A stretch of DNA of 64,000 nt from Escherichia coli 042 (lineage in GTDB: Bacteria > Pseudomonadota > Gammaproteobacteria > Enterobacterales > Enterobacteriaceae): NCBI RefSeq assembly GCF_000027125.1, contig NC_017626.1; one strand, given 5' to 3'. The position numbers and the translations under genes are program-made. The notes below the pieces were generated by a model, which was given only the letters and a program-made list of their open reading frames with translations, did no database searches and was not told the origin of the DNA. Each line of letters starts with the position of its first letter. Within the stretch, counting starts at the first letter, position 1. Positions 55,086 through 57,295 of this stretch are shown here, one piece after another.

Positions 55086-56318
55086 ATGCGTGATCATTTA
55101 ATGACAGACAAAATTTGGCTTTGTACTAATGTTCTGCGTGCAGCAATTGCTCGTATTGAGTGGATTTTTGAAACATTTCCATCAGTTTGTCTCTCTTTTT
55201 CCGGTGGTAAAGATTCCACCGTGCTTTTCCATCTTTTGGCTGATGTGGCCCGCAGGAAAAAACGTCGTTTCTCTGTACTGTTCATTGACTGGGAGGCTCA
55301 GTACCAGTGCACCATTGAACATATTCAGAAGATGCGGGAAATGTACCATGATGTGACGGAAACCTTTTACTGGGTGGCACTTCCCCTGACCACGGTAAAC
55401 GGTGTTTCTCAGTTTCAGCCGGAGTGGATATGCTGGGAGTCTGGTGTGAAGTGGGTTCGCCAGCCACCGGAGGGGGCCATTACAGATATGGCGTATTTTC
55501 CCTTTTACCGGTATGCCATGACGTTTGAAGAATTTGTTCCGGCATTTTCTTCCTGGTTTGCAGACAATAAATGTGGTGTGGCAGTACTGACCGGTGTCCG
55601 TGCGGATGAGTCCCTTAACCGGTTCATGGGACTGGTATCCCAGCGCAAACTGAGATACGCCGATGATAAGCCCTGGACCACGGCATCGCCTGAAGGGTTT
55701 TACTACACCATGTATCCGCTGTATGACTGGAAAACTCGTGATATCTGGATATATCACACCAGAACCCGTGCCATCTACAATCCCCTGTATGACCTGATGT
55801 ACCGTGCCGGCGTACCGTTACGCAACATGCGTGTCTGTGAACCTTTTGGTCCTGAACAACGTAAGGGACTGTGGCTTTACCATGTTCTGGAGCCGGAAAC
55901 CTGGGCCAGGATGTGTGAGCGGGTGTCAGGCGCTGCCAGCGGGGCGCTTTATGCCAATGAAAGCGGTGCCTATTTTGCCCTGCGTAAACGTATATCAAAA
56001 CCGGCCCATCATACCTGGCGCAGCTATGCGATGTTCCTGCTGGATGTGATGCCGGAAAGAACGGCAGAACATTACCGTAATAAAATTGCTGTCTACCTGC
56101 GCTGGTATCAGACGCGGGGCTTCCCGGATGACATCCCGGACGAACAGGAGAATGATCTGGGGAGCCGGGATATTCCGTCCTGGCGACGTATCTGTAAAAC
56201 ACTCATAAAGAATGATTTCTGGTGCCGGACTCTCTCCTTCAGTCCGAACAAACCCCGGCACTATGAACGTTACCTGCAGCGTATGAAGGAAAGGAGGAAT
56301 GAATGGGGGATTCTGTGA
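55086..56318 (+). CDS. PAPS-reductase-like (PP-loop ATP pyrophosphatase) protein, IbrA-like
   Basis: PP-loop motif SFSGGKDS; ~400 aa; followed by ParB-like gene. Confidence 0.78.
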   Translation: MRDHLMTDKIWLCTNVLRAAIARIEWIFETFPSVCLSFSGGKDSTVLFHLLADVARRKKRRFSVLFIDWEAQYQCTIEHIQKMREMYHDVTETFYWVALPLTTVNGVSQFQPEWICWESGVKWVRQPPEGAITDMAYFPFYRYAMTFEEFVPAFSSWFADNKCGVAVLTGVRADESLNRFMGLVSQRKLRYADDKPWTTASPEGFYYTMYPLYDWKTRDIWIYHTRTRAIYNPLYDLMYRAGVPLRNMRVCEPFGPEQRKGLWLYHVLEPETWARMCERVSGAASGALYANESGAYFALRKRISKPAHHTWRSYAMFLLDVMPERTAEHYRNKIAVYLRWYQTRGFPDDIPDEQENDLGSRDIPSWRRICKTLIKNDFWCRTLSFSPNKPRHYERYLQRMKERRNEWGIL

Positions 56319-56947
56319 CACCTGAAGTGGAGGTACTGAGTGACATGATTCGTCAGTACTTCAGCCAGGAACGACCAGAAGAAGAGGCCATACAGGCCCT
56401 TAATCACCTGCGCAGGGTGCTTCATGAGGTCAGTCCTTTTGCACAGGAGCCTGTGGACTGTGTGCTGTGGGTGAAAGCGGATGAGGTGGTGGCTAACGAT
56501 TATAACCCCAATGTCATGGCGCCGGGTGAGAAGAAACTGCTGAAACATTCACTGGAGCAGGATGGGTTCACGCAGCCTGTGGTTGTCTCGGAAGAGAAAG
56601 AGCATTATCTGGTCGTGGATGGTTTTCATCGTCAGTTACTGGGCAGGGAAGCAGGTACGGGAGAACGTCTGAAGGGCTGGTTGCCAGTGACCTGTATTAA
56701 TCCGGAAAGAAAGGGACAGGCTTCACGTATTGCAGCGACCATTCGACATAACCGGGCCAGGGGTAAACACCAGATAACCTCTATGTCCGATATTGTCAGG
56801 GATCTTTCACGCCTGGGCTGGATGGATGAACGCATTGGCACTGAGCTGGGTATGGACCAGGATGAAGTACTGAGACTGAAACAGATTAGCGGGCTGACGG
56901 AATTGTTTCAGGAAGAGGACTTCAGCCCGGCATGGACGGTTCGCTGA
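56303..56947 (+). CDS. ParB-like nuclease domain protein, IbrB-like
   Basis: ParB/Srx-type motifs (ANDYNPN, VVDGFHR); overlaps preceding gene by 16 nt. Confidence 0.78.
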   Translation: MGDSVTPEVEVLSDMIRQYFSQERPEEEAIQALNHLRRVLHEVSPFAQEPVDCVLWVKADEVVANDYNPNVMAPGEKKLLKHSLEQDGFTQPVVVSEEKEHYLVVDGFHRQLLGREAGTGERLKGWLPVTCINPERKGQASRIAATIRHNRARGKHQITSMSDIVRDLSRLGWMDERIGTELGMDQDEVLRLKQISGLTELFQEEDFSPAWTVR

Positions 56948-57025
56948 GACCGTCAGGTATGTATATTATTTCAGTGAGTTGATGTTTTGAGCAGGAAAAA
57001 GAGTCCCCCGGAAGTCGTGGAAGAC

Positions 57026-57295
57026 ATGGTTGCGCAAAAACTGGAGGCTGCTGGTTGCTGGCGCAGAGCTTCTGCCCGCTGGCTTTTTGTTATGGGAAAT
57101 GTTGAATGTACAGAAGCACAACGGGAGTGGTTGTTGTTGCGCAGGAATTATTGCCTGGCGCAGATATCGTCCCCGCCGCTACCTGAAAAGCTGGATATCA
57201 GCGAAGTGGCGAAAGCTGCAGATGCCACGCTGAGGAGAATGGGGATTGCCAGTCCGTCCGGGGAGGTATTCAGAAAAGGTACACCGGTCTGTTGA
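57026..57295 (+). CDS. PerC-family transcriptional activator-like protein (ORF from TTG at 56987; ATG at 57026 preferred)
   Basis: ...KLEAAGCWRRASARWLFVM...AQREWLLLRRNYCLAQ... resembles recalled PerC pattern. Confidence 0.55.
   Translation: MVAQKLEAAGCWRRASARWLFVMGNVECTEAQREWLLLRRNYCLAQISSPPLPEKLDISEVAKAADATLRRMGIASPSGEVFRKGTPVC

Follow-up and report, generated by a model that had tools for sequence, protein, structure and literature searches.

An ibrA-ibrB gene pair with an adjacent pchD-type PerC regulator gene in a type VI secretion and defense island of Escherichia coli: protein families, genomic contexts and a possible joint action on DNA

In this study, we examined positions 55086 to 57295 of a 64,000-nucleotide stretch of Escherichia coli 042 DNA (contig NC_017626.1), the whole of which is called the window below. 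The locus is almost certainly the mobile-element gene pair ibrA-ibrB, followed by a pchD-type regulator gene of the PerC family and two small conserved open reading frames (ORFs). Positions 55086-57295 (2,210 bases) match E. coli 55989 (NC_011748.1, 3392717-3394926) at 100% identity, and RefSeq names the three genes there 'phosphoadenosine phosphosulfate reductase', 'IbrB-like domain-containing protein', and 'PerC family transcriptional regulator'. The ibrAB and PerC genes themselves are already known, annotated, and common. The features of the block are the following.

55086-56318, plus strand: ibrA, 410 amino acids (aa); predicted PP-loop ATP pyrophosphatase of the phosphoadenosine phosphosulfate (PAPS)-reductase/FAD-synthase/CysD subfamily, with a C-terminal helical DUF3440 domain.
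56292-56318, plus strand: ibrA-ibrB translational-coupling junction, read directly from the sequence.
56303-56947, plus strand: ibrB, 214 aa; ParB-type N-terminal domain (nucleoside triphosphate (NTP)-binding fold) and a helix-turn-helix (HTH); RefSeq WP_000502863.1, 'IbrB-like'.
57026-57295, plus strand: PerC-family regulator gene, 89 aa from the RefSeq ATG; Pfam PerC, ortholog of pchD (group 2 pch) of enterohemorrhagic E. coli (EHEC).
57316-57960, plus strand: ORF214, conserved hypothetical gene, 214 aa, beginning 20 nt past perC.
58026-58349, plus strand: hypothetical gene of 107 aa, the last of the conserved block, with insertion sequence (IS) debris beyond it.

The ibrA and ibrB genes overlap by 16 nt, with the ibrA TGA (56316-56318) falling inside ibrB, and an AGGAGG Shine-Dalgarno sequence (56292-56297) lies in the 3' end of ibrA, 5 nt ahead of the ibrB ATG (56303). 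The distance from the ibrB stop to perC is 78 nt to the ATG at 57026, or 39 nt to an alternative TTG start at 56987 (ORF 56987-57295). A first-pass annotation of this DNA had described a PP-loop (SFSGGKDS) protein overlapping a ParB-like gene, with a PerC-like gene 80 bp downstream. All three ORFs were placed correctly, the overlap and both domains were found, and the spacing agrees with the 78 nt measured here; the PAPS_reduct, DUF3440, and ParB-like domains were all recovered by hidden Markov model (HMM) searches. Its naming of the pair as IbrA/IbrB-like was likewise borne out by the domain architecture, the overlap, the RefSeq 'IbrB-like' name, the copy in Escherichia phage PhiR5_2 (84% DNA identity), which is annotated IbrA/IbrB, and the collinearity with E. 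coli O157:H7. It had also called the biochemical role unsettled, and our literature search gave no biochemical function for the pair. The title of Sandt, Hopper and Hill (2002) reports that ibrAB genes activate prophage eib genes, and, going by that title, this activation is the only ibrAB genetic phenotype on record. No newer functional study of IbrA/IbrB, DUF3440, or ybdN/ybdM was found in the literature, and two papers in which both domains are named deal with other subjects than this pair.

Compared with other E. coli and Klebsiella copies, the ratio of nonsynonymous to synonymous divergence (dN/dS) was 0.13-0.18 for ibrA, 0.04-0.08 for ibrB, and 0-0.18 for perC. These low values indicated that the three are real genes and not chance ORFs, and that ibrA and ibrB are under strong purifying selection. 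ORF214 is probably in the same operon as perC. It had no match in NCBIfam, PADLOC, PHROGs, or Pfam, and is also found in strains R2 and FDAARGOS_1258. We considered whether it is a paralog of the 214-aa gene upstream of ibrA in R2, and the two showed no similarity. The 107-aa gene is annotated at the same position in 55989, R2, and FDAARGOS_1258, and gave no family match.

The IbrA protein carries the PP-loop motif VCLSFSGGKDSTV at residues 34-46, which contains SFSGGKDS. The HMM searches matched it to DUF3440 (1.5e-24), to PAPS_reduct in two separate parts (5e-7 and 7e-7), to the PP-loop family ATP_bind_3 (8.5e-5), and to phrog_2302 (2.9e-82), and its catalytic domain resembles those of PAPS reductases, FAD synthase, CysD, and TilS. 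Among 55 homologs at 28-54% identity, the invariant residues were G41, K42, and S44 of the PP-loop together with D68, E70, W117, W123, S176, D219, and Y235. No cysteine of any kind was invariant in these 55 members. The most cysteine-rich column (89% Cys) is Ala98 in the present copy, C251 (context RVCEPFG) is conserved in 51%, and roughly half of the members have C370 and roughly half C380. The C-terminal ECGLH of CysH, which holds its catalytic cysteine, is not found in IbrA, where the context of C251 differs.

The first-pass annotation called this protein PAPS-reductase-like, which holds for membership of the superfamily and fails for a true PAPS reductase. The PAPS reductase models gave 35.1 bits against a cut-off of 154 (NF002537), 33.6 against 254.2 (TIGR02057), and 29.2 against 165.1 (TIGR00434). 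The DndC model TIGR03183 gave 15 bits against 290.4, and the DndC model of PADLOC gave 18 bits. Overall, IbrA scores about 6- to 20-fold under the curated cut-offs for CysH, CysD, and DndC. In PADLOC v2 the only matches of IbrA were partial and weak, to BrxP (27 bits) and DndC, with none over the full length. As the scores are far under the cut-offs and no cysteine is invariant, IbrA is neither a PAPS reductase nor DndC. The lack of an invariant cysteine makes classic sulfonucleotide reduction unlikely, and likewise a family-wide Fe-S cluster; an Fe-S cluster or catalytic cysteine was therefore rejected at the family level. The sequence features suggest that IbrA is a PP-loop ATP pyrophosphatase or adenylyltransferase. 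Neither sequence nor fold searches gave a solved structure of a close relative, and the DUF3440 domain had no structural match by fold. Fusion partners were also considered as a functional clue, and the eight longer IbrA homologs were inconsistent (one ABC_tran, one weak GNAT match).

The IbrB protein matched Pfam ParB_N only marginally (0.014) and phrog_2159 'ParB-like' strongly (8.6e-85), and a search of the PDB with the family profile reached Noc (1.9e-7). Its AlphaFold2 model had a confidence (pLDDT) of 87. Foldseek matched this model at 3e-7 to 3e-6 to 7nfu, 6sdk, 7bm8, and 8qa9, which include C-terminally truncated Noc, ParB with CDP or CTPγS, and KorB; sulfiredoxin was a weaker fold match. 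The predicted structure thus places in IbrB the N-terminal ParB fold and the HTH of the ParB/CTPase clamps. In the profile alignment, box I is occupied by NdYNPN, and DGFHR takes the place of the GERR of box II. Between E. coli, Firmicutes, and Bacteroidota, 33 IbrB columns are invariant, including T-x-RHNRARG-x-H, and conservation at this level speaks for an active site over a simple scaffold. The polypeptide stops after the HTH and lacks a C-terminal dimerization domain. The first-pass annotation had called it a ParB-like nuclease. The ParB fold and the HTH are upheld by phrog_2159 and by the fold match, but 'nuclease' is only a legacy domain name, and no nuclease domain (HNH or PD-(D/E)xK) was detected in IbrB by Pfam and PHROGs scans. 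IbrB had no PADLOC v2 match.

A profile scan that took one genome per species gave a diverse set of 79 ibrA loci, which span Enterobacterales, Opitutales, Bacteroides, Chitinophaga, Lachnospiraceae and other Clostridia, Listeria, Helicobacter, and Alphaproteobacteria. An IbrB homolog adjoins ibrA in 78 of them; in 77 of these it is the next gene downstream on the same strand, and in the remaining one it is upstream. The ibrA-ibrB junctions are mostly overlapping or abutting, also in other phyla. In a metagenome-assembled genome of Cellvibrionaceae, the order is reversed and the IbrB homolog, upstream of ibrA, has a C-terminal extension of about 180 aa (locus L040, 4823-6007). The surroundings of the pair vary. 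In a metagenomic phage it stands beside two HNH genes and a DNA polymerase gene, and in Listeria, Opitutales, and Bacteroides it is flanked by ordinary chromosomal genes.

Three kinds of upstream gene recur. An SNF2 helicase of about 415-470 aa (phrog_62; DpdE/ZorD-like in PADLOC) lies immediately upstream of ibrA in 11 of the 79 loci, often overlapping it (L038, L044, L045, L047, L048, L050, L051, L072, L077, and two further). These SNF2-ibrA-ibrB three-gene units come from Listeria, Clostridia, Erysipelotrichia, Opitutales, Alphaproteobacteria, and Chitinophagaceae, and in a Hathewaya prophage the triad follows the endolysin gene. Nine Bacteroidota loci (L041, L061, L062, L066, L067, L078, L080, L088, and one further) encode a protein of about 135-142 aa directly upstream of ibrA, and the representative from L061 had no PHROGs or PADLOC match. 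Eight enterobacterial loci have a LysR regulator gene upstream of ibrA, which is the ybdO-ybdN-ybdM layout of E. coli K-12. In a Citrobacter locus with such a LysR-type gene upstream, the ybdN-type protein is 59% identical to the IbrA studied here.

Within E. coli, related DNA was found in 2,150 of 5,426 complete genomes, with up to five copies per genome. It is also carried by 580 plasmids, of which 318 are from Klebsiella, 178 from Escherichia, and 61 from Shigella. The IncFIB/IncHI1B plasmids of Klebsiella pneumoniae (about 229 kb) have ibrAB without perC, at 88.6% DNA identity, between fecIA and iroBCDN and some 350 bp upstream of iroB (L003, 6859-8720). In IncF plasmids the pair follows fimbrial operons, and in phage PhiR5_2 it stands at the genome end, after two antirepressor genes. 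We also considered the trio as anti-defense cargo of plasmid leading regions, and saw no sign of this in three plasmids inspected, although no search was aimed at leading-region markers. The genes near the trio in those three plasmids were fimbrial operons, fec/iro siderophore genes, IS elements, and toxin-antitoxin genes.

The PerC protein of the locus matched PF06069 (6e-36) over residues 11-100 of the TTG-start ORF, which is the whole small protein. The block is collinear with ECs1386-ECs1389 of SpLE1 (OI-43/48) in O157:H7, four genes in the same order. The identities are 93% for IbrA, 93% for IbrB, 97% for PchD (86/89 aa), and 87-88% for ORF214. Since the gene order places the O157:H7 copy at ECs1388 (pchD) and 86 of 89 aa are identical, the PerC gene here is the pchD ortholog. 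Between 55989 and O157:H7, the synonymous divergence (dS) is 0.29-0.45 for ibrAB and about 0.1 for perC and ORF214. The block is thus a mosaic, as the dS of ibrAB is three to four times that of perC and ORF214.

In an evenly spaced sample of the ibrAB matches in E. coli, perC followed ibrAB in about half. It was beside ibrAB in none of the 79 diverse loci and is absent from the copies of the uropathogenic E. coli type and of Klebsiella. PerC/PchD is therefore a separate, lineage-restricted small activator, a passenger with some E. coli ibrAB and not part of the conserved pair. The proposal that the adjacent PerC gene belongs to one regulatory module with the pair holds for the adjacency and does not hold as a conserved partnership. 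Our data give no support for a link of PerC to the promoters of the type VI secretion system (T6SS) clusters. It has been reported that pchD, of pch group 2, has little effect on LEE (locus of enterocyte effacement), that pch groups 2 and 3 are not needed for ler/LEE expression, and that their function has 'remained elusive'. The PerC protein here is only 25% identical to PerC of enteropathogenic E. coli (EPEC). To our knowledge, 55989 has no LEE.

The idea that the EPEC perABC operon is a decayed ibrAB-perC module was dropped, as PerB gave no alignment to IbrB, EPEC PerA gave none to the HTH regulator upstream of the plasmid ibrAB copy, and the two PerC proteins share only 25% identity. Two further PerC-like genes were observed. 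Plasmids of enterotoxigenic E. coli carry an unannotated PerC-like ORF, 56% identical, just downstream of the CS5 fimbrial operon and without ibrAB nearby (L102, 6001-6273). A diverged ibrAB-perC copy with 79% DNA identity occurs in CFS3292, a strain of bovine origin, some 3.5 kb away from a gene for a YadA-like trimeric autotransporter (L106, 12676-16080). The Eib proteins belong to the same YadA-like trimeric autotransporter class.

The whole window lies within a large genomic island, and its genes follow in the order Ag43, antirestriction gene, CbtA/CbeA, Hha, T6SS cluster with Tle1/Tli1, defense genes, ibrAB block, IS debris, and aai T6SS cluster. There is no phage structural gene and no tRNA gene within the window. 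As phage structural genes are lacking there, the pair is not inside an intact prophage. The neighboring features are given below.

48462-49664: PD-Lambda-1, a GIY-YIG protein (4.3e-88); RefSeq 'GIY-YIG nuclease family protein'.
49900-51645: NERD and UvrD-type helicase, PADLOC candidate C3a187 (5.6e-137); RefSeq '3'-5' exonuclease'.
52070-53437: ORF with a TssA/ImpA N-terminal domain, uninterrupted over 455 aa (TIGR03362, 1e-22, under the cut-off).
53652-55045: Kiwa, with KwaA (186 aa, PADLOC 3e-10) and KwaB (276 aa, DUF4868, 2.4e-12).
58380-60680: IS debris, with an rve integrase-core fragment, a beta-ketoacyl synthase fragment, and a frameshifted IS630; an intact ISVsa5 comes next, before the aai T6SS.

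The Kiwa genes are directly upstream of ibrA with a 40-bp gap, have a GC content of 34%, and are both 'hypothetical' in RefSeq. The 455-aa ORF is split in RefSeq into an ImpA-N pseudogene, a POTRA fragment, and a VasL-domain protein, an arrangement also given for strain R2. The cargo at the block differs between strains. It is a Mokosh-like MkoA-type helicase in O157:H7 (L021, 5778-8458), Shango SngABC with E-values to 6.8e-278 in strain R2 (L104, 10263-16087), and an Old-family nuclease in FDAARGOS_1258 (L105, 4537-5985), where ibrB is frameshifted. The homology among the E. coli ibrA loci starts at about codon 14, and the first 13 codons (55086-55128) and the DNA upstream are unrelated. This start of homology and the uneven dS point to recombination breakpoints inside the block, and, together with the variable flanking cargo, the shared sequence from about codon 14 suggests that the ibrAB-pchD block behaves as a conserved anchor in a variable defense island. 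No conserved promoter or parS-like site was found upstream of ibrA, where the DNA of seven loci was unrelated and held no conserved palindrome. The scan for consensus promoters (12, against 11.0 ± 3.3 in shuffled sequence) and that for terminators (5, against 3.9 ± 2.2) did no better than shuffled sequence.

Taken together, the pair is most likely a DNA-directed, NTP-dependent ParB-type protein with an adenylating enzyme. We tentatively propose, as the reading to which we incline, that IbrA and IbrB work jointly on DNA as a two-protein machine, a nucleotide-dependent modification or regulation module. In this proposal, IbrB would bind DNA in a nucleotide-dependent manner through its ParB/Noc/KorB-like domain and HTH and recruit IbrA, which would use ATP to adenylate its target and so drive a covalent change of the DNA or of a DNA-bound partner. 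The read-out might be a change in how horizontally acquired genes are expressed, for which eib is the case reported from genetics, or else the protection or marking of mobile-element DNA in conflicts among phages, hosts, and plasmids. The intact, invariant PP-loop, the fold match of IbrB, the adjacency in 78 of 79 loci, and the purifying selection are consistent with such a machine. So is the DNA-related or mobile-conflict context, namely the phage with HNH and polymerase genes, the prophage ends, the SNF2 helicase in 11 loci, and the four E. coli defense settings.

Several observations weigh against joint chemistry on DNA. The literature search found no report of DNA modification, of DNA or NTP binding, or of contact between IbrA and IbrB, and the nearest solved subfamily (FAD synthase, CysD, CysH) uses small molecules and not nucleic acids. 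The DNA before ibrA showed no conserved palindrome, promoter, or parS-like site, PADLOC has the pair neither among its known nor among its candidate defense systems, and the DndC fit is 15 bits against a cut-off of 290. Moreover, the only genetic phenotype is transcriptional activation, which is possible without covalent chemistry on DNA. The eib activation is compatible both with a modification that changes silencing and with a KorB-like clamp that does no DNA chemistry.

A KorB-like regulatory clamp of the latter kind is the main rival. Here IbrB would load on DNA and relieve the silencing of horizontally acquired genes in the manner of the ParB-family regulators KorB or VirB, the latter having an anti-silencing role, IbrA would be an accessory ATP-dependent cofactor, PchD would be a third activator, and no DNA would be modified. 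We consider such pure transcription control rather unlikely. It agrees with the best matches of IbrB, which are KorB, Noc, and ParB including the HTH, with the position of the pair next to iroBCDN, fimbriae, a YadA-like adhesin gene, and T6SS clusters, with the description of the K-12 paralogs ybdNM as repressed by YbdO, and with the activation of prophage eib genes in the title of Sandt et al. However, the PP-loop and about ten other IbrA residues are invariant across phyla, which would be needless for a passive cofactor. The pair also occurs in phages near DNA polymerase and HNH genes and behind SNF2 helicases, in organisms whose regulons are unrelated, and no conserved operator lies near the genes. 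The pair might instead be an uncharacterized anti-phage or anti-plasmid defense, or an anti-restriction function of mobile elements, with IbrAB sensing or altering incoming DNA. In every E. coli context examined (55989, O157:H7, R2, and FDAARGOS_1258), the block does lie among defense genes, the SNF2-IbrA-IbrB triads resemble the helicase systems Dpd, Zorya, and DISARM, and prophage ends, where the pair is found, are a common site of accessory (moron) genes. The association with the island is guilt by association, though; no PADLOC model covers the pair, no nuclease, toxin, or membrane effector is consistently linked, and the presence in phages with DNA polymerase and in the core-like ybdONM of K-12 fits poorly. 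We therefore hold the defense role to be unlikely, slightly more so than transcription control.

A metabolic role in sulfur assimilation, in which ibrA would encode a genuine PAPS reductase or be an auxiliary metabolic gene of phages and ibrB would be an unrelated neighbor, is very improbable. The RefSeq product name and the weak matches to CysH and CysD models speak for it, as does the rise of the cys regulon in a ybdO mutant, which overexpresses ybdNM. Yet the CysH score is 35 bits against 154, that of TIGR02057 is 34 against 254, no cysteine is invariant, and the obligatory pairing with a DNA-binding ParB-fold protein would be left unexplained. Returning to the two-protein machine on DNA, we can picture a bolder and distinctly doubtful extension of it, in which IbrAB would be the core of a widespread system that chemically marks DNA or a DNA-bound protein, is extended by SNF2 in some lineages, and is distinct from Dnd, Ssp, BREX type 4, and Dpd. 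A ParB-type NTP-dependent DNA clamp would there guide a PP-loop adenylating enzyme for which no conserved cysteine is required. If true, this would explain both the old 'co-activator' phenotype and the residence in defense islands.

The pair, which was named more than 20 years ago, shows conservation that reaches from Enterobacterales to Listeria, Bacteroides, and Lachnospiraceae and is carried by all kinds of mobile elements. The present analysis narrows the options, as the pair is neither a sulfonucleotide reductase nor a Dnd-type enzyme. The 580 plasmids with related DNA include Klebsiella plasmids that carry iro (salmochelin) genes beside ibrAB. As pchD travels with ibrAB as one block, phenotypes of either gene in enteroaggregative E. 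coli and EHEC need checking against the other.

When the locus is set against known systems, the IbrA/IbrB of strain ECOR-9 share with it the overlapping order ibrA then ibrB, the PAPS_reduct and DUF3440 domains followed by a ParB-like protein with HTH, and the carriage on E. coli mobile DNA; the pchD gene downstream is a difference from ECOR-9. In contrast to the PhiR5_2 setting, the present copy is in a T6SS and defense island and not beside antirepressor genes. The O157:H7 locus also has a HecB/POTRA gene further upstream, of which a remnant is left in 55989, whereas directly upstream of ibrA it has the Mokosh-like helicase in place of Kiwa. The YbdN/YbdM proteins of K-12 are a paralogous pair with the same domains and overlap. 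YbdM has been called 'completely uncharacterized', and YbdO has been described as the ybdNM repressor. The ybdNM genes have this dedicated LysR-type YbdO gene upstream and no PerC gene, while the present copy has no linked LysR gene. Its PerC protein shares with EPEC PerC and EHEC PchA-E the Pfam PerC family, the size (89 aa), and the location on horizontally acquired DNA. It belongs to pch group 2, whose pchD is reported to have little effect on LEE; activation of LEE1/ler is a property of PerC and PchA-C.

The ParB, Noc, and KorB clamps share with IbrB the N-terminal NTP-binding fold, the HTH, and aligned box I and box II positions. Box II is DGFHR in IbrB and GERRxRA in the ParB clamps, with Phe at the glutamate position, and box I is NxYNPN. 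IbrB differs further in lacking the C-terminal dimerization domain, a ParA gene nearby, and an identified parS, and it has an extra invariant motif, RHNRARGxH. In the Dnd system of DNA phosphorothioation, with which SspD and BrxP are grouped here, the ParB-superfamily protein DndB and the PAPS-reductase-family protein DndC work together on DNA; DndB-DndC is the closest precedent in architecture and speaks in favor of the proposed two-protein machine. Unlike Dnd, ibrAB has no linked DndA/IscS, DndD, DndE, or restriction partner, the gene order is reversed, and there are no conserved cysteines; DUF3440 is present only in IbrA and not in DndC. Since there is no cysteine desulfurase, DndD/E, or conserved cysteine, sulfur chemistry is not indicated. 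What IbrB-IbrA and DndB-DndC have in common is the combination of a ParB-superfamily protein with a PP-loop ATPase of the PAPS-reductase family, and the weak homology of IbrA to the DndC and BrxP models supports a shared family.

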